From: an uncultured Bacilli bacterium
GTDB lineage: Bacteria; Bacillota_I; Bacilli_A; RF39; UBA660
Length of the DNA: 64,000 nucleotides
Direction: 5' to 3'
NCBI GenBank assembly: GCA_947625085.1
Contig: CANQMV010000002.1
Span: 1,490-65,489 of the forward strand
Below the pieces are notes generated by a model. The model worked only from the letters and a program-made list of their open reading frames with translations, was not told where the DNA came from and did no database searches. Both the position numbers and the translations under genes were made by a program. The number at the start of each line of letters is the position of its first letter. Within the stretch, counting starts at the first letter, position 1. Positions 5,996 to 64,000 of this stretch are shown one piece after another.

Positions 5996-6072
5996 TGAGA
6001 AATAACTCAGTTGGTTAGAGTGGGGAGCTTATATCTCTCTGGTCGTGGGTTCAAGTCCTACTTTCGCAACCA
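5996..6072 (+). tRNA. tRNA-Ile, anticodon UAU (reads AUA)
   Basis: Manual cloverleaf. Acceptor TGAGAAA/TTTCGCA with one A-G mismatch at 3-70. D arm ACTC..GAGT. Anticodon loop CTTATAT. T arm GTGGG-TTCAAGT-CCTAC. Encoded ACCA end. Confidence 0.7.
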
Positions 6073-6096
6073 TTTTAATGAAAGGAAAAGATAATT

Positions 6097-6231
6097 ATGC
6101 CATGTCATAGAAAAGACGGAAATGGTACACAAAAGAAAAAGTACCAAGCACATTTTTTAAAAATAAAAGATTATACATCAAAAGGAAAAACAAACAAAAA
6201 AAAGAAAAATCCAAAAGAAAAGCAAAAGTAG
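6097..6231 (+). CDS. 44-aa lysine-rich basic mini-protein between tRNAs
   Basis: SD AAAGGAAAAG before ATG 6097. MPCHRKDGNGTQKKKYQAHFLKIKDYTSKGKTNKKKKNPKEKQK. Confidence 0.3.
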   Translation: MPCHRKDGNGTQKKKYQAHFLKIKDYTSKGKTNKKKKNPKEKQK

Positions 6232-6252
6232 AGTTATTAATACTTTTTTTAT

Positions 6253-6327
6253 TGCCTCATAGCCAAATGGTAAGGCATAAGGCTTTGAACCTTAGATATG
6301 CTAGTCCGAGTCTAGCTGAGGCAACCA
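6253..6327 (+). tRNA. tRNA-Gln, anticodon UUG
   Basis: Perfect 7-bp acceptor TGCCTCA/TGAGGCA. D arm GCCAAATGGTAAGGC. Anticodon loop CTTTGAA. T arm GCTAG-TCCGAGT-CTAGC (C at position 55 is unusual). ACCA end. Confidence 0.8.
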
Positions 6328-6333
6328 ATTTAT

Positions 6334-6407
6334 CGCAGGTTAGTGTAATGGTAACATTTTAGAATCAGTATCTAAAGATAAAGGTTCAATTCCTTTGCCT
6401 GCAACCA
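6334..6407 (+). tRNA. Atypical tRNA, anticodon CAG (nominally Leu) on a class I body with a 4-nt variable loop
   Basis: Acceptor CGCAGGT/GCCTGCA with a C1-A72 mismatch and a G-U pair. D arm GTGT-AATGGTA-ACAT. Anticodon stem TTAGA/TCTAA with loop ATCAGTA. T arm AAAGG-TTCAATT-CCTTT. ACCA end. Confidence 0.55.
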
Positions 6408-7123: not shown

Positions 7124-8453
7124 TAAAAAAGTTGTTAATATAAGAGATTTAATTATTCCAAAATATCATAATAATTTTGGAGATATATCTCACACTCATC
7201 AAATATATACTAGTGGCAGAGCTGGAACTAAATCAAGTCGTGGAGCTTTAAAAGCGGTTAGAAGAATAATTGACAAAAAGCCTGGTTCAGTAGTTATTAT
7301 GAGAAAGTTTCATAATAAATTAAAAAAGACGGTATTTAAAGAGGCATTAAGAGCAATTTATAGATTGAAACTTAATAAAAAAGATTTTAAGATAACAATA
7401 AGTCCAATGCAAATAACTTATAATCCAACAGGAAATACAATTTACTTCACTGGTAATGATTCAATTGATGATACTAAAGGTATGATAGATGAGGATAGAC
7501 CAATTGTATTGGTTGAATTAGATGAGGTAACAGAGTTTTTTGATAAAGGTGATGGAGAAGATGAATTACAAAACATAGAAGCAACATTTATTCGTGGAAA
7601 TGATGAAGAGTTTGTTATGGAATATTATTTTAATCCACCTAAAAATCCTAAAGCTGATATAATGCTATGGCTTGATAAAATGAAATTGAGAGAAGATTGC
7701 ATACACGTTCATACTGACTATAGAGATGTGCCTGTTGAATGGTTAGGTAAAAAGTTGATAGCAACAGCTGAAATACTTAGAAATTTAGATGAAAAAATGT
7801 ATAACTGGTTATGGCTAGGATTATGTACAGGTATAGATGAAGTAATCTATTATATGTTTAAAGAAGATATTCATGTTAAAGAATTGCAAGAAGACGAATA
7901 TCATAAAATTAATTTTTTAGCAATTGGTGTTGATTATGGGCAAATGAATCCTACAACTTATGAATGCTTTGCTTTAAATGTGGCAGATAAATGTATAAAT
8001 GGAATAGATGAATATTATCATAGCGGTAGGGAAACCGGAAAACAAAAAAGTCCTAGTGAATATGCTAAAGATTTTAAAGAATTTAGAGAAAAGGTTGAGA
8101 GCCAAACTGGTAAGAAGGTGTTATATGTGTATATAGACCCATCAGCAAAAGGTTTACAAGAGGAAATAAAAAGATTATGTCCTGATATTATTTTTCCATC
8201 TGTTGATAATACAGTCGAGTTAGGTATAAATAGAGTTCAAAAGTTGATGTCTTATAGACGTCTTTTTTTAAGTTCTAAGCAAAAGCACTTGATAGAAGAA
8301 AGATATATGTATAAATACGATGAAGATTTGCTTGATAAAGGAAAAGAAGTTCCGGTAAAACAAAATGACCATTGTTCTGATGCAGAGAGATATACAATTA
8401 TGGGATTGTGGAGATTTTTGAAAAATATGTTACCAATTTTAGAAAGAGAGTGA
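7101..8453 (+). CDS. terL: Terminase large subunit
   Basis: 450 aa. Walker-A-like SGRAGTKSS near the N-terminus. Size and position match PBSX/SPP1-type TerL. Confidence 0.85.
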   Translation: MMTSQIINKKVVNIRDLIIPKYHNNFGDISHTHQIYTSGRAGTKSSRGALKAVRRIIDKKPGSVVIMRKFHNKLKKTVFKEALRAIYRLKLNKKDFKITISPMQITYNPTGNTIYFTGNDSIDDTKGMIDEDRPIVLVELDEVTEFFDKGDGEDELQNIEATFIRGNDEEFVMEYYFNPPKNPKADIMLWLDKMKLREDCIHVHTDYRDVPVEWLGKKLIATAEILRNLDEKMYNWLWLGLCTGIDEVIYYMFKEDIHVKELQEDEYHKINFLAIGVDYGQMNPTTYECFALNVADKCINGIDEYYHSGRETGKQKSPSEYAKDFKEFREKVESQTGKKVLYVYIDPSAKGLQEEIKRLCPDIIFPSVDNTVELGINRVQKLMSYRRLFLSSKQKHLIEERYMYKYDEDLLDKGKEVPVKQNDHCSDAERYTIMGLWRFLKNMLPILERE

Positions 8454-9907: not shown

Positions 9908-11544
9908 TGAACAAAATTCAATTTGATAGATTATTAAAGCCATTAATAGAAATATATGATGATATAGAATTGGATTTAATAAACAATATTTTAAATAGAA
10001 TTGAAAATTATAAAAATGTGAAAGGTAGTTTAGAGTGGTATTTAGATAAATTAGCAGAACTAGGTATTTTAGAAAATGATAATCTTAAAGTATTAAAGAA
10101 AAATAAATCTAAAATTGAAAAAGTTTTAAAAGAAATAGTAAATAATACTGGAAGGCATAACGAAAATTTAGAACTATTAACATCATATTATGAAAAAGGA
10201 TTATTAAATGTTAATCCACTTGAGATATATAATAGTGAATCAATAAATAATTTAGTTAATAATGCTTTAAAAGATTCAGAAGATATACTTGAATTAATTA
10301 ATACTAAAGCTATTGAAGGTGCCAATCAAACATATAAATATATAATAAATAAAGCATATGTCGAAACAGCTAGTGGAGTTTATACTTATACTGAATCAAT
10401 TAGAAAAGCCTTAAATGAAATGGCTGAAATAGGTATTGAAACAGTACATTATAAAAGTGGTAGAAGTATAGGCATTGAATCAGCAGTTAGAAGAGATGCC
10501 ATAACAAGAATGAATAAATTAGTAGGAGATGTTGAGTTAAAACATTGTGAAGAATTAGGGACTAATCTAGTCTATGTTGACCAACATTTAGGTGCTAGAG
10601 TTAGAACTAAATATACTAAGAACGATTATGAGGCACATGCTGAATGGCAAGGCAAAAAATATATGATAGATGGTTCTAATGATAAATACGATAATCTTTA
10701 TGAAAAAACTGGTTATGGTGAGATGTTAGGTCTTAAAGGGATTAATTGTTATCATAACATGAGACCAACTTGGGAATGGGAAGAAATACCAGATGTTATT
10801 GATGAAGTTGCTAATAAAGAAAAATATGAATTATATCAACAACAAAGAGCTTATGAAAGAAAAATTAGAAAATTAAAAAGAAAAAGATTTGTTAGTGAAA
10901 AAACAAATGATAGTAATTACGAAAACATTAATAAAAAATATCAAGAAACAAGCAAAGAATTTAATAATTGGTTAAAAGAAAATGGCTTAAATAGAGATTA
11001 TGCTAGAGAATATGTTAGTGAAAATATTAAAAATACAGAAAATTTAGCAAGTAATCAAAAAAGTGAATTTGATAAAGTGATTTTTAAAGAATATTTGAAA
11101 AATATTTCTGGAAGTGATTATTTTGAAAAAATAAAAAAATATGAAGATGATATATTTAATCAACCAATTGAAAATGCTATAATAATAGAAGAAAATGGTG
11201 ATGTTTATAAATTTACAGGTGTAGAAGACTATGTAAATATTGATGGTAATTTTAAAAATGCTATAATTACTCATAATCATGTTACTTTTAAAGATGAATT
11301 AGGAGGTTCATTTGGTAAAGATGATTTTAATTTATTAGTAAAACATCAAGATATAAAAGAACTTAGAGCAGTTGATGAAAAGTATCTTTATAAAACGAAA
11401 GTATTAACTAAAATTTCTGAAAATGATTATGATGATGCATATATAAATGTTATTTCAATTGATGACAATGATTATAAACATTTAGTTATGAAAGTTTTAA
11501 ACGAAAGAGGATTGATTGAATATGAAAGAACAATTAGAAAATGA
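9907..11544 (+). CDS. Minor head protein (MuF/SPP1 gp7-like) with a ~190-aa C-terminal extension
   Basis: Position after the portal. The N-terminal ~330 aa look like a minor capsid/MuF protein. The C-terminal part is unrelated and contains ITHNHV..GGSFGKDD. Confidence 0.6.
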   Translation: MNKIQFDRLLKPLIEIYDDIELDLINNILNRIENYKNVKGSLEWYLDKLAELGILENDNLKVLKKNKSKIEKVLKEIVNNTGRHNENLELLTSYYEKGLLNVNPLEIYNSESINNLVNNALKDSEDILELINTKAIEGANQTYKYIINKAYVETASGVYTYTESIRKALNEMAEIGIETVHYKSGRSIGIESAVRRDAITRMNKLVGDVELKHCEELGTNLVYVDQHLGARVRTKYTKNDYEAHAEWQGKKYMIDGSNDKYDNLYEKTGYGEMLGLKGINCYHNMRPTWEWEEIPDVIDEVANKEKYELYQQQRAYERKIRKLKRKRFVSEKTNDSNYENINKKYQETSKEFNNWLKENGLNRDYAREYVSENIKNTENLASNQKSEFDKVIFKEYLKNISGSDYFEKIKKYEDDIFNQPIENAIIIEENGDVYKFTGVEDYVNIDGNFKNAIITHNHVTFKDELGGSFGKDDFNLLVKHQDIKELRAVDEKYLYKTKVLTKISENDYDDAYINVISIDDNDYKHLVMKVLNERGLIEYERTIRK

Positions 11545-11716: not shown

Positions 11717-11727
11717 AGTGCTTTTAT
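11696..11727 (+). terminator. Intrinsic terminator
   Basis: AAAGCACT..AGTGCTTT 8-bp stem followed by a T-run. Confidence 0.55.
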
Positions 11728-11739
11728 TATGGCGAAGAA

Positions 11740-11973
11740 ATGAAAAAAGAAGATATATTAAATAATTATGTAGAGAATATTAAACAATTAGGTAAAGAGT
11801 TAATAGATAATGCAGAAGCAATAGTTTATGACAAAATCCCTATGATTAGAGAGATTGAAATTTACACTAAAATAACATCAGGTGAAATATCAACATGGGA
11901 TTTGCATTACTCATATATGAGTAATATATCTAAATTAGACTCAAAAAAAACCCAAAGTAAGAGAAAAACATGA
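11740..11973 (+). CDS. Hypothetical phage protein
   Basis: ORF track. Confidence 0.5.
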   Translation: MKKEDILNNYVENIKQLGKELIDNAEAIVYDKIPMIREIEIYTKITSGEISTWDLHYSYMSNISKLDSKKTQSKRKT

Positions 11974-30212: not shown

Positions 30213-31412
30213 ATGCAAAAAGTAGTTATTAATGCAAGTTTAGGAGGAAATATTGAAGGTGGGGTTAATGCTAATTTAGTTGAAAAAGATTTTAATTTAG
30301 AAATATCTAAGTTAATTTATGATAAACTTCGAAGTCTTGGAGTTGATGCGTATTTAGTAAGAGATGATGATAGTACGTTAAGTGATGAAGAAAGACTTTC
30401 AATAATTAATCAATATTTAAATGGAGACTCTGGAATTGTTTTAACTAATAAACTAGCAAGTGGCTTGGATTCTGGAGCCGAAGTTATTTATGCTTTAAAA
30501 GATGCTGATACCTTAGCTATGCAAATTAGTAATAGTATTGAATCTCTTGGTCAAAATATTTTAAAATTTTATCAATTACGAGACCCTAATAATACCGCTT
30601 TAGATTTTTATTCAATTATTAGAGAAGTTCCTGAAAAGGTTGAAAGTCTTATTGTTAGTTATGGTTATTTAGATTCTTCAAAAGATATTGATTTTCTGCA
30701 AACTAAAAAAGAAGAATTAGCAACTAATATTGCTCTTACTATTTATGATTATTTAAATAAAAATAATATTTATGTAGTTAAAGAGGGTGATAGTTTATAT
30801 ACTATTGCTCGTAAATATGAAACAACTGTAGCTAAATTAAAAGAACTTAATAATTTGGTAACTAATAATTTAGCAGTTGGTCAAGAATTAATAATTCCAA
30901 GTAATAAGCAAAATGGTTTGAATTTGTCCGAGCAAGACTTTTTAATTTATACTGTTAAACCAGGAGATACGTTATATACAATTGCAAGAGCAAATAATAC
31001 TACAATAGATGTTTTAAAAGAAATTAATAATTTAGAAAGCGATAATTTAAATTTAGGAGAAATATTAAAAATTCCAACGAAAATTACGAATGAAGATATG
31101 GAAAATTATCAAATATATGTTGTCAAACCTTTAGATAATTTATATGATATTGCGAAAAGATTTAATGTTAGCGTTCTTGAAATTAAAAATTTAAATGGGT
31201 TAAGCAGTGATAATTTAACAATTGGTGAAGTTTTAAAAATTCCAAATCAAAGTAATAAGTCTAATTATTTTAATTATGTAGTTAAAAAGGGTGATAATTT
31301 ATATAAAATTGCTAATTTATATCAAACTACTGTTTCAGAACTTAAAAATTTAAATAATTTAGAAAATAATGATTTAACAGTTGGTAAAGTTTTGAAAGTT
31401 CCCAAAGTTTAA
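30213..31412 (+). CDS. Amidase_3-like domain (zinc ligands substituted) plus four LysM repeats
   Basis: The N-terminus aligns to the MurNAc-L-Ala amidase fold, but GHGG is SLGG and SIHxN is VLTNK. Four Y.V..GD.LY.IA......L..LN repeats follow. Confidence 0.65.
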   Translation: MQKVVINASLGGNIEGGVNANLVEKDFNLEISKLIYDKLRSLGVDAYLVRDDDSTLSDEERLSIINQYLNGDSGIVLTNKLASGLDSGAEVIYALKDADTLAMQISNSIESLGQNILKFYQLRDPNNTALDFYSIIREVPEKVESLIVSYGYLDSSKDIDFLQTKKEELATNIALTIYDYLNKNNIYVVKEGDSLYTIARKYETTVAKLKELNNLVTNNLAVGQELIIPSNKQNGLNLSEQDFLIYTVKPGDTLYTIARANNTTIDVLKEINNLESDNLNLGEILKIPTKITNEDMENYQIYVVKPLDNLYDIAKRFNVSVLEIKNLNGLSSDNLTIGEVLKIPNQSNKSNYFNYVVKKGDNLYKIANLYQTTVSELKNLNNLENNDLTVGKVLKVPKV

Positions 31413-37362: not shown

Positions 37363-38097
37363 ATGAGAATTGCGGTATTTTCTGATATTCATGGTAATTT
37401 AGAAGCTTTAAAAGAAATTTTAAATGATATAGAAAATGAAAAAATTGATGAAGTTATTTGTTTAGGAGATGTTATAGGTCTTGGACCGGAAAGTAAAGAA
37501 TGCCTAGATTTAATAATTTCTAAAAAAATTAAATTTATTTTAGGTAATCATGAACTTTGTTATTTATTTGGTTTTAATATTGATAAAAGTGTTGATTTAA
37601 AAAGAAGTGAACATTATAAATATATTGATAAAATTTTAGGAGAAGAAGAACATAGATTTTTAGAGAAATGTCCGTTGTTTATTGAATGTAAATATTTAGA
37701 TAAAAAGATTTTGTTTGAGCATTTTTTAATTAAAGATAGAAATTTAAAATATCCTTATTATAGTTTAAATATTTTAACGAGTTTAAAAGATAGTTTAGGG
37801 GAAATTGTAAAAAAGACAGGAAATGATTATATTTTTATAGGTCATGAACATACAGGATTTGAATTTGAGGTTGATGATATTAAATTGATTGATATTGGTA
37901 GTAGTGGATGTGTTAAAAATAATATAATTTTTTATACCATTATTGAATTTAAAAATGATATTTCTGTTATGAAAAAGGTTATTACTTATAATAAAGGAAA
38001 ATTAGAAAAAGCATTGTTAAAAGAAGATTATCCTGAAAGATTAGAAATAGCTTCGAAATTTTTTGGAATAAATATTGAAAAAGAAAATTCAAATTGA
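37363..38097 (+). CDS. Metallophosphoesterase (YfcE/MPP family)
   Basis: MRIAVFSDIHGN..GD..G.GP..GNHE..GHEH motifs. Confidence 0.8.
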   Translation: MRIAVFSDIHGNLEALKEILNDIENEKIDEVICLGDVIGLGPESKECLDLIISKKIKFILGNHELCYLFGFNIDKSVDLKRSEHYKYIDKILGEEEHRFLEKCPLFIECKYLDKKILFEHFLIKDRNLKYPYYSLNILTSLKDSLGEIVKKTGNDYIFIGHEHTGFEFEVDDIKLIDIGSSGCVKNNIIFYTIIEFKNDISVMKKVITYNKGKLEKALLKEDYPERLEIASKFFGINIEKENSN

Positions 38098-38103
38098 TAT
38101 AAT
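38075..38103 (+). promoter_or_regulatory. Promoter of leader copy 1
   Basis: TTGAAA 38075-80, 17-nt spacer ending in TGa, then TATAAT 38098-103. Confidence 0.5.
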
Positions 38104-38134: not shown

Positions 38135-38203
38135 ATGTATAAAATAGATGTAAATTATGAAGAAAAAGAAGTTGACAATTTGTCAACCTGGGGGGGGGTA
38201 TAG
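38135..38203 (+). CDS. Leader uORF copy 1 (22 aa, MYKIDVNYEEKEVDNLSTWGGV) containing the palindrome and G9 tract
   Basis: SD AGGATG lies upstream. Inverted repeat GTTGACA-ATT-TGTCAAC at 38171-87. G9 at 38190-98. TAG at 38201-03. The C-terminus and nucleotide core are conserved in copies 2 and 3. Confidence 0.6.
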   Translation: MYKIDVNYEEKEVDNLSTWGGV

Positions 38204-38242
38204 TACTTAAATATCAACTAAATTCTCAAAAATTAAAAGAGT

Positions 38243-38293
38243 AACACTTAAAAAATTGGTAAGAAATTTACCAAATTTTTAGGTGTTTTTTTA
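38243..38293 (+). terminator. Leader terminator copy 1
   Basis: 20-bp stem AACACTTAAAAAATTGGTAA / TTACCAAATTTTTAGGTGTT (one G-U pair, one mismatch), loop GAAAT, then T7. Lies 25 nt before ATG 38318. Confidence 0.8.
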
Positions 38294-38317: not shown

Positions 38318-41305
38318 ATGAATAAAAAAAGTATAATAATTAGTCTAATCGTTTTAACAATCGTATTAATAATTGGAAGTAGTTATGCTTATTTAAAAGC
38401 AGAACGTGAATCTGAAGAACAAAGTTTAAGTATGAAAAACTTTGGAGTAATTTTATTAAAAGATATGGTTTCTGTAACACTAGATAAAACAGTGCCAATG
38501 AGTGATGAAGATGGAATATATAATGAAAGTACAACTTTTGAAATTCAAAATACCGGAAATGTATCAGCAAATTACAAAGTAAGTTTAGTTGATAAAGAAA
38601 CTAAAAGTACAATGAGTAATAATGATATAAGATATCGATTAACTAGGATAAGTTCAATAGATAATACCAAAGAAACTTTTGAAATCAGAAATTTAGATAG
38701 CAACGGAATAATTGATGAAGGAGTAATTGAAGTATCTGAAATAATAACTTATGAAATAGTATTATGGATAGATATAGATGCTAATCCATTAGGTCAAACT
38801 TTTAATAAAGTAGTAGAAGTAGATGCATTTCAAAATAATTCTCTTGATAGAAGTGGAGCTAATCCGCCTGAAATGCTTGCTAGTATGATACCCGTATATT
38901 ATGAAAAACAAACAGATGAAAGTGGAATATGGAAAATTGCTGATATAACCAATAGAAATAAACATTATGCATGGTATAACTATGCTGATTATAAAAAAAG
39001 TGATGCTGAAGATGTAAAAACAATGGTAGCAACTATTTTACCAAGTGGAGATATATCATTAGATGGAACAGATGATTATGTTAATTTAGGATATGAAAAT
39101 TATGATTTTAAAAATAATATTAGTGTAGTAGCAAGATTTAAAGTAAATAGTTTTCCAAGTAATTTTTTTGGTTATATAATAGGAAATGCAGAAGGAGCTG
39201 GTTTTTATTTTGGTGTATTAAATAATAAGAAAATTCGAGTAGGAATTCATGTAAATGGTGGTTATAAAGATTTAACTTCTACAATGACGATAAATGGAAA
39301 TACTTGGTATACAGTAGTCGCCACTTATGATAACAATAAAATTAAATTATATATATATCAAAATGGTAGTTTATTAGAAGAAAATGAAATGTCAGTTACA
39401 GGAGCAATAAAACCTTCAATTGCACCATTAATGTTAGGTGGAAATCCTGGTGTTGATGGAAAACCTTATGGAGAATTCTTAAATTATATAATAAGTGATA
39501 CATTAGTTTACACAGATACGTTAACTGATACCGAAATAAAAAATTATTTTACAAATGAGATAATAGATTATCCAAAAGATAATTTACTAGTTGAAAAAAT
39601 AGGCTTTTTAGAAAGCGAATCTAACAGGTGGGCTAATGTTATAACCTTGAAAGAAGGGGAAAGAAAATTAGTTGATGAAACCTTCACTAGTATTCCAGAT
39701 ACAAAATATTATGAAATTTTAGATAATGGAGATATTTATTTAGATGGAGTTAATGATTTTTATAATTTAGGTCATGCTAATGAAGAATTAGGAAGTAATA
39801 TTAGTTTAGTTGCAAGATTTAAATTAAATAGTTTAAACAATGAAACCCGTATAATTTCCAATACCCAAGGTGGAGGATGTATGATACGAATTCTGTCAAC
39901 TAAAAAAATTGGCTTTAGTATTCATATTAATGGAGCCTATCGTGATCTTATGAGTACTAATTTAATTGAGGTAGGAAAGTGGTATACAGTAGTTGCTACC
40001 TACGATAATTCTAAAATGAAACTTTATGTTTATCAAGAAGGAAAACAAATTGAAACTAAAGAGCAAGAACAAACTGGTGCAATAACTAAATCAGCAGCTC
40101 CTTTTACGCTAGGCTCTGAACCAGATGCCTTTGGATTTCCTGTAGATATTACTTCTATAAATGGAACAATAAGTAAGGCAATAATATATAAAGATACTTT
40201 AACTTTAGAAGAAATTACTAATAATTTTACTAATGAAATAACAAATTATCCTGAAGATAATATTTTAATAGATGTTGGAAAGGGAAAATATATTGAACAA
40301 AAGAATTATTATACAATAAATGACCAAGGAGAAATAACTTTTAATGGGCAAGATAATTTTTTAAATCTTGGCTATGAAAATTATGATTTTAAAAATAATG
40401 TTAGCCTTGTTACTAAATTTAAGATATTTTCTTTAAATAAAAGCAATAATAGTTTAATTGGAAATGCTGAAGGTGGTGGTATAAGTCTTTATGTAAATAA
40501 TAATAATATTAGATTTGAAGTTCATACGGGAGGAAGTTATCATTACCTTGCAAGTGATATGACAATTAACGAAAATAAATGGTATACGGCAGTAGGAACT
40601 TATGATGGAAGTAAAATGAAATTATATATCTATCAAGATGGAAAACAACTGGAAGTTAAAGAACAAGCTCAAACTGGTGCAATAACTAAATCACCTGCTC
40701 CTTTAATGTTAGGTGGTAATCCTAATGCTTATGGTTTTCCTACTGATAGTTTTCTAAATGGTTCTATAAGTTCAACCTATGTCTATAATGATACTTTAAC
40801 TGATATGGAAATTGAAAGTATCGGAAATGATATAAAACAATATCCAAAAAATAACTTATTAATAGCTTATGAAGATTTTAAAGAAAAAAGTGAAAGAGAA
40901 ATTTTATTAAAATCTGAACCAGGAACTGAGATTAAGACGGAAAATATAGCAAATGTATGGGTTTGGATACCAAGATTTAAATATAATAGTTTAAATGAAA
41001 GTGTTAATTTTTCAAATGGAATCAAAAAAGAAGAAACTACTCTGCAAGCATTTACCAATGAAAATAAAGAACTAGTAGGTTTTTATGTAAGTAAAGAAGA
41101 TATAAATAATTTAGAAGAAGTAAAACAAAATATAATAGATAATAATAAAAATTATGAGGTTCATACAATAAATGATAATGAAAAAGCAGCCGCCAATTAT
41201 CTTTTAAATTCAAAATATGGAAATAAATCTCAGTTGGGAAACACTTTAACTAATAATCGAGCAGTTATTGATATATACCATGAATTTCCTTGGCTTAACG
41301 AATAG
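38318..41305 (+). CDS. Large secreted/anchored protein (paralog A)
   Basis: Domain order: N-terminal anchor, beta-sandwich domain, three LamG/ConA-like repeats, and a truncated FGE-like C-terminus. The N-terminus MNKKSIIISLIVLTIVLIIGSSYAYL resembles SipW/camelysin-type signals. Each LamG-like repeat has DG.DD/NF.NLG....NIS.VA.FK...WYTVVATYD..K.KLY.YQ.G. The C-terminus carries WVWIPRFKY and ..LVGFYVSKE.. homologous to paralog B. Confidence 0.8.
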   Translation: MNKKSIIISLIVLTIVLIIGSSYAYLKAERESEEQSLSMKNFGVILLKDMVSVTLDKTVPMSDEDGIYNESTTFEIQNTGNVSANYKVSLVDKETKSTMSNNDIRYRLTRISSIDNTKETFEIRNLDSNGIIDEGVIEVSEIITYEIVLWIDIDANPLGQTFNKVVEVDAFQNNSLDRSGANPPEMLASMIPVYYEKQTDESGIWKIADITNRNKHYAWYNYADYKKSDAEDVKTMVATILPSGDISLDGTDDYVNLGYENYDFKNNISVVARFKVNSFPSNFFGYIIGNAEGAGFYFGVLNNKKIRVGIHVNGGYKDLTSTMTINGNTWYTVVATYDNNKIKLYIYQNGSLLEENEMSVTGAIKPSIAPLMLGGNPGVDGKPYGEFLNYIISDTLVYTDTLTDTEIKNYFTNEIIDYPKDNLLVEKIGFLESESNRWANVITLKEGERKLVDETFTSIPDTKYYEILDNGDIYLDGVNDFYNLGHANEELGSNISLVARFKLNSLNNETRIISNTQGGGCMIRILSTKKIGFSIHINGAYRDLMSTNLIEVGKWYTVVATYDNSKMKLYVYQEGKQIETKEQEQTGAITKSAAPFTLGSEPDAFGFPVDITSINGTISKAIIYKDTLTLEEITNNFTNEITNYPEDNILIDVGKGKYIEQKNYYTINDQGEITFNGQDNFLNLGYENYDFKNNVSLVTKFKIFSLNKSNNSLIGNAEGGGISLYVNNNNIRFEVHTGGSYHYLASDMTINENKWYTAVGTYDGSKMKLYIYQDGKQLEVKEQAQTGAITKSPAPLMLGGNPNAYGFPTDSFLNGSISSTYVYNDTLTDMEIESIGNDIKQYPKNNLLIAYEDFKEKSEREILLKSEPGTEIKTENIANVWVWIPRFKYNSLNESVNFSNGIKKEETTLQAFTNENKELVGFYVSKEDINNLEEVKQNIIDNNKNYEVHTINDNEKAAANYLLNSKYGNKSQLGNTLTNNRAVIDIYHEFPWLNE
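39040..40870 (+). repeat. Three tandem ~600-680-bp intragenic repeats (LamG-like modules)
   Basis: Repeat cores start near 39060, 39740 and 40340. The 24-mer CAAACTGGTGCAATAACTAAATCA occurs at 40070 and 40670, exactly 600 nt apart. Confidence 0.8.
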
Positions 41306-43664: not shown

Positions 43665-45698
43665 ATGGATTTAGTAATAGTTGAATCCCCAGCTAAAAGT
43701 AAAACAATTGAAAAATACCTTGGAAAAAATTATAAAGTTGTAAGTAGTATAGGTCATATTCGCGATTTAGCAACAACTGGTAAATATGGACTTGGAATAG
43801 ATATAGATAATAACTTTACCCCTAATTATGTACCAATTAAAGGTAAAAAGAAAGTTATAAGTGATTTAAAAAAATTAGTTAAAGAAGCTTCCAAAGTTTA
43901 TCTTGCAACCGACCCCGACCGAGAAGGGGAAGCTATTTCTTGGCATTTATATGATACCCTTGGCATTAAAAATAAAGACTATTCAAGAGTCTTATTTTAT
44001 GAAATTACTAAAGATAAAGTTTTAGAGGGAATCCAAAAGCCTCGAAAAATTGATTATAATTTAGTTAAGAGTCAAGAGACAAGGCGTTTTTTAGACCGAA
44101 TTATTGGATTTAGACTTAGTAAACTTATGCAATCAAAGACTAGTGGAACAAGTGCTGGTCGGGTTCAAAGTGTTGCTTTAAAATTAATCGTTGATAGAGA
44201 AAGAGAAATTGCAGCTTTTAAAAGTGAGGAGTATTATACTGTTACTGCCTTTTTTAACGATTTTGCTGAACCTTTTACTTCAGAACTTTTTAAATATAAA
44301 GAAGCGGATATTGAGATAAAAACTGAAAATGAAGCTAAAGAGATACTAGCCAAGTTAAGTGCTAATTTCAAATTAGAAAACATTGAAACGAAAACGAAAA
44401 ATAAAGCTAGTAAATTTCCATTTACAACGTCAACTTTGCAACAAGAAGCTTCAACTAAACTTAATTTTAATGCTAAAAAAACGATGATGTTAGCTCAAAA
44501 AATGTATGAAGGTATTGATATAGGTAGTGAAACTGTCGGATTAATTACTTATATGCGTACGGATTCTATTCGGTTAAGTGATGAATTTACAGGTAGTGCT
44601 TTTAAATATATTGAAGAAAAATTTGGAAAAGAGTTTGTTGGGTATATTAAAAGAAGTAAAAAAACTGAAAATGTTCAAGATGCTCATGAAGCAATAAGAC
44701 CAACAAGTATTTTAAGAGAACCTAAAGATTTAGAAAAATATTTAACAGCTGATGAATTTAAATTATATAATTTGATATATAAACGAACACTTGCTTCTTT
44801 GATGAGTGATGCTAAAACTTTAGCAACAACCATCATTCTAGATAACAATGATTATAAGTTTAAAACAACTGGTTCAGTGGTTACTTTTAAAGGTTATTTA
44901 GATGTTTATCAAGAGTTTGAAGATACAAAAGATACGATTTTACCAGATTTAAATGCTAAATTAAATCAAGAAATTGAATCTTCAGAAATTAAATATGAAC
45001 AACATTTTACTAAGCCTAAGCCAAGATATACTGAAGCAAGATTAATTCATGAAATGGAAGAGTTAGGAATTGGAAGACCTTCAACTTATGCAACTATTAT
45101 GTCTAATATAAGAGATCGTGGTTATGTAATTTTGGAAGATAAAAAATTTGTTCCAACTGAAGTTGGAATTCAAGTAACAGATCGCTTGCAGGAATATTTT
45201 AGTAATATTATTAATGTTCGTTATACTGCTAATATGGAAGAAGATTTAGATAAAATTGCTCAAGGTGAATTAAATAATTTAGAGGTTTTAACTAATTTTT
45301 ATCAAATTTTTGATGAAACTCTTCAAAAGGCTTTTAAGGGAATGGAAAAAGAAAAACCTGAAGAAACCGGAGAAGTTTGTCCTGAATGTGGTAATCCTTT
45401 GGTAGTTCGAAAAGGAAGATATGGGGAATTTGTTGCATGTAGTAATTATCCAAATTGTAAATATATAAAAAAAGAAACTCCAGATATTAAAGAAATTATT
45501 GATTGTCCAAACTGTTCTGGTAAAATTGTTGAGAAGCATACTAAAAAAGGTAAAGTTTTTTATGGTTGCAATAATTTTCCAAAATGTAAAACTGCATATT
45601 GGGATATGCCAACTGGGGAGTTATGCCCTAATTGCAACGAAATGTTAGTTAAGAAAAATGATAAAATTAAATGTTCAAAATGTGATTACGAAAGGTAA
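43665..45698 (+). CDS. topA: DNA topoisomerase I
   Basis: TOPRIM N-terminus (LVIVESPAK..DPDREGEAI), active-site YMRTDS, and C-terminal CxxC zinc ribbons. Confidence 0.95.
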   Translation: MDLVIVESPAKSKTIEKYLGKNYKVVSSIGHIRDLATTGKYGLGIDIDNNFTPNYVPIKGKKKVISDLKKLVKEASKVYLATDPDREGEAISWHLYDTLGIKNKDYSRVLFYEITKDKVLEGIQKPRKIDYNLVKSQETRRFLDRIIGFRLSKLMQSKTSGTSAGRVQSVALKLIVDREREIAAFKSEEYYTVTAFFNDFAEPFTSELFKYKEADIEIKTENEAKEILAKLSANFKLENIETKTKNKASKFPFTTSTLQQEASTKLNFNAKKTMMLAQKMYEGIDIGSETVGLITYMRTDSIRLSDEFTGSAFKYIEEKFGKEFVGYIKRSKKTENVQDAHEAIRPTSILREPKDLEKYLTADEFKLYNLIYKRTLASLMSDAKTLATTIILDNNDYKFKTTGSVVTFKGYLDVYQEFEDTKDTILPDLNAKLNQEIESSEIKYEQHFTKPKPRYTEARLIHEMEELGIGRPSTYATIMSNIRDRGYVILEDKKFVPTEVGIQVTDRLQEYFSNIINVRYTANMEEDLDKIAQGELNNLEVLTNFYQIFDETLQKAFKGMEKEKPEETGEVCPECGNPLVVRKGRYGEFVACSNYPNCKYIKKETPDIKEIIDCPNCSGKIVEKHTKKGKVFYGCNNFPKCKTAYWDMPTGELCPNCNEMLVKKNDKIKCSKCDYER

Positions 45699-45711
45699 AA
45701 GAATTACATAA

Positions 45712-45743
45712 AAGAATTTAGAAATAATTTAAATTCTTTTTTG
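45712..45743 (+). terminator. topA terminator
   Basis: AAGAATTTA..TAAATTCTT stem followed by T6. Confidence 0.65.
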
Positions 45744-45798
45744 CTTGATTAAATTCTAAAAATATTGTATTCTTAATATAAGAATAGGAGAACTTGAG

Positions 45799-45876
45799 AT
45801 GGAAAATAAGTTAAAATATTATAAAAATTATCAAAGAAAAGAAGTTGACAAATTGTCAACCATGGGGGGGGGATAG
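45799..45876 (+). CDS. Leader uORF copy 2 (25 aa, MENKLKYYKNYQRKEVDKLSTMGGG)
   Basis: SD AGGAG. Palindrome GTTGACA-AAT-TGTCAAC at 45844-60. G9 at 45864-72. TAG at 45874-76. Confidence 0.6.
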   Translation: MENKLKYYKNYQRKEVDKLSTMGGG

Positions 45877-45915
45877 TACTTAAATATCAAGTAAATCCTT
45901 TGAACTTAAAAGAAT

Positions 45916-45966
45916 AACACTTAAAAAATTGGTAAGAAATTTACCAAGTTTTTAGGTGTTTTTTTA
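45916..45966 (+). terminator. Leader terminator copy 2
   Basis: Near-identical to copy 1 (20-bp stem plus T7). Lies 23 nt before ATG 45989. Confidence 0.8.
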
Positions 45967-45988
45967 AGTTTATTTAGGAGGATGAAAG

Positions 45989-47443
45989 ATGAAAAATAAA
46001 AGAAATTTAATCTTAGTAATTATGGTAATTACAATAATAAGTATTATTTATGTAAAGGTAGATAAAGAAATTAATTTACAAAAAGAAGTAGGAAAAGCAA
46101 TTATTAGTAAGCAAGAAGTAAATGCCGGAGAAGAAAACTATAAAGATGCAACTTTAAAAGGAGCAGACCCAGTTATTAGTGGTAAGTTAATCCCGGTAAC
46201 AATTGATAAAAAAGGGAAAGTAACATATGCCAATATAAAAAAAGAATGGTATAACTATCAAAAGAAAGAGTGGGCTAATGCAGTAATCTTAGTAGATAAT
46301 CCCAGTTTAAACTATAAAGTTGGCAGTGAAATAAAAGAAAGTGATATTGAAAGTTATTTTGTTTGGATACCAAGGTTTAAGTATAAGTTATGGAATGCAA
46401 ATCAAAAAGATGGAAATTATTCTATAGGAAATATAACTGACGATGCAAATTCCTTAACATCATATCGAATGCTTTTTGGAAATACAAGACTAATCGAAAT
46501 AGAGTTTGAAAATAATAAAACAAATAAATCAAATAATACAACTAATGGAGAGTGGCTAACTCATCCAGCCTTTACCTTAAATGGCAAAGAATTAAATGGA
46601 ATTTGGGTTGGTAAATTTGAAACTGGTTATAATCAAGGGGATTCTGGAAAGCCAATTGAAAATACAACAACATGGACATTTGCTAAAGCCCAAGTTGATA
46701 AAGTTGAAAGCGATAAAATAATAGTAAAACCAAACGTTTATTCATGGCGAAATTCAACAGTTTCTAACTTTTTTAAAAGTGCCTATAACTATAACCGAGA
46801 TTTAGATAGTCATATGATGAAAAATACCGAATGGGGAGCAGTCGCTTATTTATCACATTCTTTATATGGAATTGGAAAAGAAATAAATATTAACAATAAT
46901 AATCAATATAAAACAGGTTACTCAGCCGTTATTGGAACCGACCAAAGTAGTTATACGGGAACTGCTGGAACTACATCTAATATAACTTTACCTTATAATA
47001 CTCCAACCGGTTATCTGGCATCAACAACTGGAAATATAACCGGAGTCTATGATATGAGTGGAGGAACTCACGAATATATGGCTGCCTATAGACCATCTTC
47101 AACTAAAGATGAAAGTGGTTTTACAGAAGAAGAATTAACGAAATATGCTGCTTATTTAGATAAGTATGAAAATGCAACCACAACATCATATAGTAAAAAA
47201 ATCTTAGGAGATGCAACGGGAGAGATGGGCCCATTTTATTACTACTTTGATAAAGATAATTCTAAAAGATATCATAATGCCTGGTTCGCCGACATGTCGC
47301 ACTTTGTTGACTCCACTGGTCCGTGGTTCGATCGTGGCGGCGGTCACACGGACGGAGTAATCGCTAGTCAGTTCTACTTCGCTAGGTACACTGGTACGAC
47401 CTACACTTACATCGCCACTCGGCTTGTAGTTACAGGAATTTAA
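45989..47443 (+). CDS. Secreted/anchored protein (paralog B) with an FGE-sulfatase/C-type-lectin-like C-terminal domain
   Basis: N-terminal TM anchor and FVWIPRFKY motif. ..HPAF..G.ELNGIWVGKFE.., ..NTEWGAVAYL.., GVYDMSGGTHEYM and ..RGGG..R..TRLVV resemble the FGE/CLec fold seen in DGR targets. Confidence 0.75.
   Translation: MKNKRNLILVIMVITIISIIYVKVDKEINLQKEVGKAIISKQEVNAGEENYKDATLKGADPVISGKLIPVTIDKKGKVTYANIKKEWYNYQKKEWANAVILVDNPSLNYKVGSEIKESDIESYFVWIPRFKYKLWNANQKDGNYSIGNITDDANSLTSYRMLFGNTRLIEIEFENNKTNKSNNTTNGEWLTHPAFTLNGKELNGIWVGKFETGYNQGDSGKPIENTTTWTFAKAQVDKVESDKIIVKPNVYSWRNSTVSNFFKSAYNYNRDLDSHMMKNTEWGAVAYLSHSLYGIGKEININNNNQYKTGYSAVIGTDQSSYTGTAGTTSNITLPYNTPTGYLASTTGNITGVYDMSGGTHEYMAAYRPSSTKDESGFTEEELTKYAAYLDKYENATTTSYSKKILGDATGEMGPFYYYFDKDNSKRYHNAWFADMSHFVDSTGPWFDRGGGHTDGVIASQFYFARYTGTTYTYIATRLVVTGI
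47279..47440 (+). other. Compositionally aberrant 3' segment (last 54 codons): DGR variable-region-like
   Basis: Sharp switch from AT-rich to about 55% GC. 22 of 54 codons are NNC (GCC TTC GCC GAC CAC GAC TCC TTC GGC GGC CAC GAC ATC TTC TAC TTC TAC ACC TAC TAC ATC GCC). Confidence 0.55.
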
Positions 47444-63078: not shown

Positions 63079-63107
63079 TTGCTATTCTAACTTTCTTGTG
63101 ATATTAT
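63079..63107 (+). promoter_or_regulatory. Promoter of leader copy 3
   Basis: TTGCTA 63079-84, 17-nt spacer ending in TGa, then TATTAT 63102-07. Confidence 0.45.
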
Positions 63108-63133: not shown

Positions 63134-63199
63134 ATGGTTAAAATAGAAAAATTAAGTCAAAAAGAAGTTGACAAATTGTCAACCTGGGGGGGGGTATAG
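63134..63199 (+). CDS. Leader uORF copy 3 (21 aa, MVKIEKLSQKEVDKLSTWGGV)
   Basis: SD GAAGGTGA. Palindrome GTTGACA-AAT-TGTCAAC at 63167-83. G9 at 63186-94. TAG at 63197-99. Confidence 0.6.
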   Translation: MVKIEKLSQKEVDKLSTWGGV

Positions 63200-63245
63200 T
63201 ACTTAATTTAAAGGGTAACTGTATTTTAAAAATAGACAAAATAAG

Positions 63246-63289
63246 ACACATAAAACTAGTAGAATAAGACTAGGTTTTATGTGTTTTTA
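63246..63289 (+). terminator. Leader terminator copy 3 (different sequence, same position)
   Basis: ACACATAAAACTAGT / ACTAGGTTTTATGTGT stem (1-nt bulge), loop AGAATAAG, then T5. Confidence 0.7.
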
Positions 63290-63359
63290 AATGCATAAAT
63301 ATTGCTAAACAGGGGCAAACGTGTTATTATAAAAATATAAAAAATAGGAGAGGTAGAAA

Positions 63360-64000
63360 ATGAAAAATAAGAAAAGAAATATTATATTAATGTGTATCTT
63401 GATAGTCTTAGTTTTACTTGTTAGTATAGGAATAACCTATGCATTTTATTCATATTCCAAAACAGGAAGTAGTAATAGTCAGTTAGTAGCCGGAGATATT
63501 TATATGCATTATAAAGAAGGTGATGCTATAAATATGCCAAATGCAATGCCAAGTGCAACATATGATGAAAGTAAAGTATTTGAATTTACAATTGATGGCA
63601 AGAATACATATACAGAAAAGGATATATGGTATGAAATAATATTAACACGTGGCGAAGTACCAGAAGGAAAGACGGAAGAAAACCGAATAAAAGATAAAGA
63701 TTTAAAGTTTACGTTAATAGAAACGAAAACTGGAGAAGACCCTAAAACAGTATTAGATGGAGTAAGTTATGACAATTTAATAAATAAAAGAATTTGGGTA
63801 AATACAATTCCAAAGAATACAAACGATAAAATAGAAATAACCTATAAATTATACATGTGGATAAGTGATGAAACGGTAATTGGAGAAATAGAAGGAGAAA
63901 GTGATACAGTTGACTATTCAATTAGTGAATGGAATGATATTTTTGCAAGTATCAAAGTAAATGTAAAAGGAGACTTTGAAGAAAAAGAGATTAAAAGTGA
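63360..64000 (+). CDS. Secreted/anchored protein (paralog C), 5' part; continues beyond the window
   Basis: SD AGGAGAGG. MKNKKRNIILMCILIVLVLLVSIGITYAFYSYSKTGSSNSQLVAGD.. resembles a SipW/camelysin-type signal. The following domain parallels the paralog A N-terminal domain. Open to the window end and not in the ORF track. Confidence 0.7.
   Translation, partial: MKNKKRNIILMCILIVLVLLVSIGITYAFYSYSKTGSSNSQLVAGDIYMHYKEGDAINMPNAMPSATYDESKVFEFTIDGKNTYTEKDIWYEIILTRGEVPEGKTEENRIKDKDLKFTLIETKTGEDPKTVLDGVSYDNLINKRIWVNTIPKNTNDKIEITYKLYMWISDETVIGEIEGESDTVDYSISEWNDIFASIKVNVKGDFEEKEIKS

Follow-up and report, generated by a model that had tools for sequence, protein, structure and literature searches.

A candidate phase-variable leader-peptide attenuator built on a G homopolymer in an uncultured low-GC gut Bacilli lineage

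The DNA analysed here is a stretch of 64,000 nucleotides (the window) from an uncultured Bacilli bacterium (assembly GCA_947625085.1, contig CANQMV010000002.1, positions 1,490 to 65,489 of the forward strand), in which a short leader precedes the gene for a 484-aa protein. Three copies of the leader are found in the window, at 38135-38292 (copy 1), 45799-45966 (copy 2, in front of the 484-aa protein gene) and 63134-63288 (copy 3). Here it is proposed that the leader is probably a phase-variable leader-peptide transcription attenuator driven by a G homopolymer, in which the number of G residues in a short upstream open reading frame (uORF) would decide whether a terminator in front of the gene takes effect. 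The anatomy of the leader, its conservation in ten copies and the G-run lengths that place homologous leaders in different reading frames are read directly from the DNA.

Frame selection by the G tract

The leader of copy 2 has the parts that the original prediction had described, with the Shine-Dalgarno (SD) sequence AGGAG (45786-45790) and ATG 45799 opening a 25-codon uORF that stops at TAG 45874-76, and with a palindrome at 45844-60 and a G9 tract at 45864-72 inside it. This leader of uORF, G tract and terminator is real; the same account had missed that the tract selects the frame in which the ribosome leaves the uORF. When the tract of copy 2 is edited in silico, the G9 form stops one codon after the run, the loss of one G moves the stop 7 nt further to the TAA of TAGTACTTAA, and the gain of one G or the loss of two opens a frame up to TAA 45915-17, which abuts the terminator stem. 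The tract itself cannot be due to chance: GGG makes up only 9.8% of the Gly codons in the window (about 26% GC) and the three G9 tracts are its only G-runs longer than six. A search of the window for G8 or longer gave 6 matches against 0.07 expected.

The same layout recurs in ten copies, namely the three in the window and seven from related low-GC gut Bacilli assemblies (L001, L004, L005, L006, L015, L016 and L017). Four of these were found without frame bias (copies 1, 2, 3 and L001), and the remaining six via annotated long-frame ORFs. All ten have an SD and an ATG for the uORF, and all have a terminator (stem energies from -10.9 to -23.5 kcal/mol, then a U tail), the sequence of which differs between lineages with the pairing kept. 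In every copy two exit frames end 23-48 nt before the terminator and the third stays open, the two short-frame stops being 7 nt apart in eight of the ten. Where the long frame stops differs between the copies: copies 1 and 2 have the stop at the terminator foot, L004 and L016 in the 5' arm, copy 3, L005, L017, L006 and L015 in the loop, and L001 in the U tail.

In five diverged lineages the long frame runs through the spacer with no stop, and each of the other frames meets 1-4 stops there. When the spacers are shuffled, a frame stays open with a probability of 0.24-0.37, depending on the lineage; multiplied over the five lineages this gives about 1.6e-3, and over the three lineages free of ascertainment bias (copies 1/2, copy 3 and L001) about 0.02. 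The last figure is supportive rather than overwhelming, and the openness of one and the same frame in every copy strengthens it.

Homologous leaders also differ in the length of the tract, and with it in their frame. L001 has CCATG-G8-CTTAGAAAATA and is in the short frame, whereas L006 has CCATG-G9-CTTAGAAAATA and is in the long frame; likewise, copy 3 has T-G9-TATAG (short frame), whereas L005 and L017 have T-G10-CATAG (long frame). The G10 form of L005 and L017 comes from two ENA samples, and the cluster of the same protein also has an NCBI source with a longest contig of 23 kb.

Proposed switch

In the proposed mechanism, transcription would begin 5' of a short, well-translated uORF, and slipped-strand gain or loss of G in its tract would change the frame in which the ribosome exits. 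In copy 2, a tract of G9 (the present length), G8 or G11 would bring the ribosome to a stop codon within 1-4 codons, still 34-41 nt short of the terminator. The hairpin of the terminator could then form and most transcripts would end before the gene, an OFF or low state. A tract of G10 or G7 would let the ribosome translate 14 further codons and halt at the terminator foot, its A site on TAA 45915-17; there it would be expected to mask 9-10 nt at the start of the 5' arm and to block the hairpin. The polymerase could then read into the gene at 45989-47443, the ON state. Each of the three switches in the window would control one secreted or surface protein gene independently, and populations could carry mixed combinations.

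Several features of the DNA bear on this proposal. In copy 2 the terminator tail and the ATG of the structural gene are only 22 nt apart, which leaves no space for a separate promoter; the same lack of space is found in copy 1 and in L004, so that in these three readthrough of the terminator would be the only route to expression. The spacer of about 40 nt between tract and terminator in copy 2 (45873-45915) folds no better than its shuffles (z 0.07), and this unstructured spacer, with no antiterminator seen in it, agrees with a model in which none is needed. Just upstream of copy 2 lies topA (43665-45698, Pfam), which is followed by a terminator-like hairpin of its own (Table 1); topA thus appears to be closed there, and copy 2 probably has its own promoter.

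By analogy with pil1 of Streptococcus gallolyticus, compared below, we infer that switching is frequent within populations and that translation into the terminator raises transcription. Should this be so, a surface protein would be switched on and off without a truncated product, and several unlinked genes would switch independently.

A number of points weigh against the proposal. The coupling of ribosome and polymerase is weak in some Firmicutes. The differences in tract length are all between diverged homologues or assemblies, and several of the ENA contigs have a coverage of 1.4-4.2x, at which homopolymer errors are possible. The six long-frame copies were retrieved as annotated proteins, by which the openness of their frame is partly guaranteed, and the four copies found without bias are all in the same short frame (an immediate TAG), which is somewhat unexpected under free switching. 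A promoter scan of 45743-45785, the region where the promoter of copy 2 is expected, called no convincing promoter on the + strand. The conserved palindrome is given no role by the model.

A further point concerns the genes of the copy-3 type. Between the terminator of copy 3 and its gene there is a promoter-like element (63302-63330, TTGCTA-N17-TATTAT with a TG and GGGGCAAA in its spacer), and the same element is conserved after the terminators of L005, L017, L015 and L016 and is not present in copies 1, 2 and L004. It may be a basal promoter, in which case the switch would only add to a basal level of expression in these genes.

Table 1. Positions of the leader copies and of the parts of copy 2 in the window.
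Feature	Position	Strand	Description
Leader copy 1	38135-38292	+	uORF 38135-38203; palindrome 38171-87; G9 38190-98; long-frame stop 38242-44; terminator 38245-38285 and U tail
AU-rich hairpin with U6, 3' of topA	45710-45742	+	-11.2 kcal/mol, z -2.9 (folding)
Expected promoter region of copy 2	45743-45785	+	by eye TTGATT 45745-50, 17 nt, TATTCT 45768-73
SD of the uORF, AGGAG	45786-45790	+	8 nt 5' of the ATG (sequence)
uORF, present (short) frame	45799-45876	+	25 codons, MENKLKYYKNYQRKEVDKLSTMGGG; ATG 45799, stop TAG 45874-76
Perfect 7-3-7 palindrome within the uORF	45844-45860	+	GTTGACA-AAT-TGTCAAC (GTTGACAAATTGTCAAC); RNA hairpin -6.0 kcal/mol
G9 homopolymer	45864-45872	+	proposed hypermutable frame selector; homologues G8, G9 or G10 (sequence)
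Long-frame extension (G10 or G7)	45873-45917	+	...GGGIVLKYQVNPLNLKE; 14 codons open; stop TAA 45915-17 abuts the terminator stem
Double-stop module	45874-45883	+	TAGTACTTAA; TAG in the present frame, TAA 45881-83 in the frame after -1 G or +2 G
Intrinsic terminator	45916-45966	+	core stem 45918-45958, -15.5 kcal/mol, then U7
SD of the structural gene, AGGAGG	45976-45981	+	sequence
Regulated gene	45989-47443	+	484 aa, N-terminal hydrophobic signal or anchor (sequence)
Leader copy 3	63134-63288	+	uORF 63134-63199; palindrome 63167-83; G9 63186-94; long-frame stop 63265-67; terminator 63247-63283 and U tail

Comparison of the three copies

Copies 1 and 2 had been described as sharing roughly 125 nt at about 90% identity from the palindrome to the terminator, and the alignment bears this out, with 115 of 127 positions identical (90.6%) from the palindrome to the terminator tail. 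Their terminators, given before as about 95% identical, are closer than that (50 of 51 positions, 98%). The halves of the two uORFs 5' of this region are unrelated, as had been stated, matching at 62% without gaps and encoding dissimilar peptides, and the flanks of the tract are indeed ATG..GGA in copy 2 and TGG..GTA in copy 1. Relative to copy 1, copy 2 has one additional base before the tract and one base fewer after it; by this pair of changes both copies end at the same TAG, and the three-frame layout is kept.

Copy 3, which is absent from the original prediction, has a 48-nt core 98% identical to that of copy 1, a different spacer and an unrelated terminator. The promoter scan places candidate promoters in front of copy 1 (38075-38103, TTGAAA-17-TATAAT) and of copy 3 (63079-63107, TTGCTA-17-TATTAT).

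The leaders look like mosaics. The cores at 38163-38210, 45836-45883 and 63159-63206 are shared, with those of copies 1 and 3 at 98% identity in front of unrelated terminators, and in L006 (337-470) a core similar to that of L001 is joined to a terminator similar to that of copy 3. Such an arrangement suggests recombination or gene conversion between copies. The three direct-repeat copies were also considered as recombination sites; this was set aside, as topA, rlmN and other essential genes are situated between the copies.

Homologous leaders in other assemblies

A search for the exact pattern of palindrome plus CCNNGGGGG gave one match in 185,579 species genomes, which is L001, in an 'uncultured Bacilli' metagenome-assembled genome (MAG) from rabbit gut, and no match in the JGI metagenomes. 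With a looser pattern, the JGI metagenomes gave eight loci, none of them a true homologue, and viral contigs gave nothing. A profile made of four hypothetical +1G peptides, searched against 5.8 billion predicted proteins, found the annotated ORFs P0121-P0125, of 36-58 aa, which correspond exactly to the long frame. Among these, P0121 (MINNYKYYSKKEVDKLSTMGGGIVLKYQVNPWNLRE) is the annotated long-frame counterpart of copy 2 in another assembly. A second profile, made of the P0121-P0125 matches and run against 1.84 billion cluster representatives, added the more distant P0127 and P0128. Altogether, at least eight distinct long-frame uORF proteins (nine identifiers, P0121-P0125 and P0127-P0130) are annotated elsewhere.

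Six loci were followed on the DNA (L004, L005, L006, L015, L016 and L017), and each has an SD, a uORF, a palindrome or near-palindrome, a G9 or G10 tract and a terminator, followed by a gene with an N-terminal hydrophobic signal. The N-terminal half of the uORF, the distance from its ATG to the tract (38-89 nt) and the long-frame peptide are not conserved across the copies, which suggests that translation, rather than its product, is what matters. Distant members of the family of the 484-aa protein (L002 and L003) lack both a leader of this kind and any G-run of seven or more, so that the leader is confined to a narrow clade.

The public 'hypothetical proteins' P0121-P0131 (36-58 aa) are presumed to be long-frame, ON-state leader peptides and not real protein genes. 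If so, there is a lesson for annotation, in that small hypothetical proteins in public MAGs may be the ON-state leaders of such switches. The signature would also be easy to scan for: a uORF that contains a homopolymer, from which two exit frames are closed and the third runs open up to a terminator.

Right after the G-run, L001 has a small second hairpin (7901-7922, CUUAGAAAA-UAGU-UUUUCUAAG), of which L006 has a close variant (377-398). In copy 3 there is a 10-bp stem at the same place (63195-63223), and the equivalent in copies 1 and 2 is weak or missing. This second hairpin holds both short-frame stops; it could be a frameshift stimulator or the product of chance.

Among the loci returned by the looser pattern are two that belong to a separate poly-G gene. 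In a JGI metagenome (Ga0099364, GC 0.5), L012 (about 1530-1330, minus strand) and L008 (11600-11761) have a promoter and an SD, then ATG..AAAATGTCAACTTGG with G12 or G13 ('MSTWGGGG'), with neither the palindrome nor a terminator. The G-run of L012 is in frame with a type-IV-pilin-like ORF (KRAFTLVELLVVIAI...), which G11 would close after three codons. These loci are probably an unrelated poly-G phase-variable gene, the resemblance being forced by the search pattern.

The palindrome

A search of the window for the palindrome with up to three mismatches gave 7 matches against 0.23 expected by chance. Among the ten copies the palindrome is perfect in seven, where variation is limited to the loop (AAT, ATT or ATA, encoding K/N and L/M). 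L006 has one A·C mismatch, and in L015 and L016 pair 4-14 has changed from G-C to A-T (compensated) and pair 5-13 is disrupted; folding predicts no stable hairpin for these three palindromes. The claim that conservation is centred on the module of palindrome, G tract and terminator therefore stands for the G-run and for the geometry of frames and terminator, but is weakened for the palindrome, which is degraded in L006, L015 and L016. Since the rest of the design survives in these copies without a stable hairpin, the palindrome would not be essential to the core mechanism.

The paired change at 4-14 is as compatible with an RNA stem as with a symmetric protein site. In trp and his leaders an early hairpin acts as a pause signal that couples ribosome and polymerase. 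For the palindrome described here, three roles are possible: a hairpin that pauses the polymerase until the ribosome has caught up, a stimulus to slippage of the polymerase on the run that follows, and an operator.

Alternative explanations

The first alternative is a programmed, non-heritable frameshift, arising by hairpin-induced polymerase slippage or by a -1 ribosome slip on G GGG GGG, which would send a set fraction of ribosomes into the long frame on every template and would act as a rheostat instead of the heritable switch or atop it. This seems unlikely. In its favour, a perfect hairpin of -6 kcal/mol lies 2-3 nt 5' of a slippery run in seven of the ten copies, and stem-loop-stimulated slippage of this geometry has been documented for a Roseiflexus insertion sequence (IS) element (Penno et al. 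2015, as described in PMC5009743). Judging by the in silico frames, a -1 ribosomal slip would reach the same downstream frame as the gain of one G, that is the long frame, whereas the hairpin case in Roseiflexus drops one nucleotide (PMC5009743), which here would give the second short frame and not the long one. The shared short frame of the four unbiased copies is consistent with a default-OFF template; differences in tract length do exist at the DNA level between homologues, however, and the hairpin is lost in L006, L015 and L016 with the rest of the design kept. A combination of the two is about as improbable: the palindrome and the G-run might form a slippage module with a set and possibly nucleotide-pool-dependent rate, as a tunable rheostat layered on the heritable three-state switch. 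Were it true, replication, transcription and translation slippage on one tract would jointly control a terminator.

It is less probable still that GTTGACA-N3-TGTCAAC is an operator bound by a dimeric DNA-binding protein, with the three genes as its regulon and the G-run as a secondary feature. Three copies with identical stems precede three secreted-protein genes in the window, well above the chance expectation given above for the palindrome search (0.23), and in L015 and L016 both half-sites have G changed to A at position 4, as a co-evolving symmetric binder would give. The paired change is equally expected for an RNA stem, however, and the palindrome is placed within the translated uORF, 40-90 nt past the likely promoters instead of at them. 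None of the copies has a regulator gene linked to it, and an operator leaves the G-run, the double stop and the open third frame unexplained.

A sensing or arrest peptide (...LST[W/M]GG-stop), stalling the ribosome on a metabolite or on the supply of Gly- or Trp-tRNA in the manner of amino-acid attenuators or TnaC, is very improbable. The sequence KEVDxLST[W/M]GG followed by a stop is kept in seven copies, and rare GGG codons could slow decoding; in L015 and L016, however, it is replaced by KYVNN[LM]ITTGG, with W giving way to M or T among the copies. Those residues that are conserved fall on the palindrome and the G-run, and conservation at the nucleotide level explains them. The original prediction had argued that nucleotide features matter at least as much as the peptide, and this is borne out by the same two copies, in which VD[KN]LST[W/M]GG has become VNN[LM]ITTGG with the G-run and the geometry of frames and terminator kept. 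No alternative antiterminator structure was found in the spacer (with the z-score given above), the minimum-free-energy folds keep the terminator intact, and the downstream genes encode secreted proteins and not biosynthetic enzymes. With the Rfam covariance models, only tRNAs scored above the gathering threshold in the window, and at E<=10 only miRNA-type hairpin matches fell on the terminator.

That the G-run is a variable promoter spacer, between a -35 element within the palindrome (a perfect TTGACA at 45845-50) and a -10-like hexamer found 3' of the run in copies 1-3 (TATAGT/GATAGT), is hardly tenable, as the spacing of 21 nt is outside the working range of 16-19 nt and G5-G6 would be needed, L001 and L006 carry CTTAGA in place of the -10 element, the promoter scan did not call the site, and the terminator would still separate such a promoter from the gene. 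A small RNA partner for the G-run was also considered and rejected; there is no C-rich run in the window except one C5 in a gene region.

Genes downstream of the leaders

Each of the three downstream proteins has a hydrophobic signal or anchor at its N-terminus. Behind copy 1 lies the gene for a 995-aa protein (38318-41305) with three LamG_3 domains (Pfam), behind copy 2 that for the 484-aa protein, which belongs to a very large unnamed family without a Pfam entry (at least 7,975 matches), and behind copy 3, starting at 63360, that for an unrelated secreted protein. The 484-aa protein had been labelled an 'FGE/lectin-like paralog'. The first part of this label has weak support, with FGE-sulfatase found in 8 of 20 family members (best E 1e-4), but Pfam finds nothing in the 484-aa protein itself; 'paralog' is an overstatement, as all that the 995-aa and 484-aa proteins have in common is a 25-residue motif. 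The best PDB match is 5VF4 (E 0.0046), which is cited in a paper on the Thermus aquaticus variable protein of a diversity-generating retroelement (DGR), and the AlphaFold model of the 484-aa protein, with a predicted local distance difference test (pLDDT) score of 40, is too poor to use.

A 59% identical homologue of the 484-aa protein (L002, 10001-13966) is a DGR target. Its variable repeat (VR, 11372-11522) and template repeat (TR, 11725-11875) are 91% identical, and genes for bAvd and a reverse transcriptase lie just downstream. No TR-like repeat and no reverse transcriptase were found in the window; a DGR elsewhere in this genome is possible. With its family diversified by a retroelement in a relative, the leader in front of the 484-aa protein would couple on/off variation with sequence hypervariation of a putative surface or adhesion protein.

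Genomic context

The window has the gene content of a wall-forming Firmicute that bears sporulation genes (Mur ligase, PASTA kinase and YqfD). Genetic code 4 was considered and rejected, as table 11 gives full-length housekeeping ORFs, and TGA was taken as a stop. Positions 1-27000 contain many small ORFs on the same strand and three tRNA genes (5996-6404), and by gene layout alone this region looks like a prophage. Within the ORF at 30213-31412, which encodes a repeat-containing protein, there are four tandem units of about 160-180 nt (30758-31402) with 61-74% identity.

Comparison with known systems

As in the classical trp and his attenuators, the ribosome on a leader ORF would decide whether an intrinsic terminator forms. 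In those, however, the input is the supply of charged tRNA, and in the leader described here it would be the length of the tract, that is, the genotype; furthermore, this leader has no regulatory codon run, no antiterminator hairpin was found in it, and the downstream genes are non-biosynthetic. With the homopolymer phase variation of Neisseria, Campylobacter and Haemophilus it shares a run of G8-10 in a low-GC genome, an association with surface genes and a proposed single ON state out of three. In contrast to classical cases of that kind, the tract is in a separate uORF and not in the structural gene or in the spacer between -35 and -10, and it would act via termination. The cwpV-type switch of Clostridioides difficile is a heritable 5'-leader switch over a terminator in front of a surface gene; there the change is a site-specific DNA inversion, and here it would be homopolymer slippage.

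The IS630-type element of Roseiflexus (Penno et al. 2015, described in PMC5009743) resembles the leader in having a hairpin-forming inverted repeat directly 5' of a slippery run. The differences are that the run here is G9 and not U5C5, that a linker of 2-3 nt is present, that attenuation and not transposase output would be affected, and that the hairpin is not kept in all copies.

The closest likeness is to pil1 of Streptococcus gallolyticus, in which a leader ORF with GCAGA repeats is followed by a stem-loop terminator and for which the mechanism was proven by genetics (Danne et al. 2014, PLoS Pathog, PMC3894217). With 22 repeats, the pil1 leader ends 39 bp before the terminator and expression is low; out-of-frame changes in the repeats place the stop within or after the terminator, the ribosome prevents the hairpin and the pili are highly expressed, and most isolates with a leader ending 28 nt or more before the terminator show low expression (PMC3894217). 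The leader described here and those of pil1 and pil3 have in common a translated leader ORF with a simple repeat, a stem-loop terminator 30-40 nt further on and genes for surface structures behind it (PMC3894217). In both, a short leader ends well ahead of the terminator and a long one at, within or after it, and there are several loci per genome.

The two systems differ in their parts. The pil1 repeat consists of 13-23 GCAGA units and that of the leader here is a G8-G10 homopolymer; no GCAGA array was found anywhere in the window. In pil1, 21 or 23 repeats instead of 22 both lengthen the leader, whereas here only one of the three frames is long, as the TAG-N4-TAA double stop closes the others. 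The conserved palindrome before the tract is a further difference, and the targets here are single genes for LamG-repeat and DGR-target-like proteins, in contrast to the sortase pilus operons of pil1 and pil3. The hosts are also distinct, an uncultured gut Bacilli lineage of 26% GC as against S. gallolyticus, and pil1 is a switch demonstrated by experiment, the one here a candidate read from the sequence. The lack of a GCAGA array in the window, taken as a proxy for homology with the pil1 leader itself not aligned, points to an analogue of pil1 by mechanism rather than a homologue. In the literature searched, phase variation via a leader peptide and a terminator was found for one organism only, S. 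gallolyticus, in pil1 and pil3; were the same device to have arisen independently here, on a plain G homopolymer, the principle would prove to be a general one.

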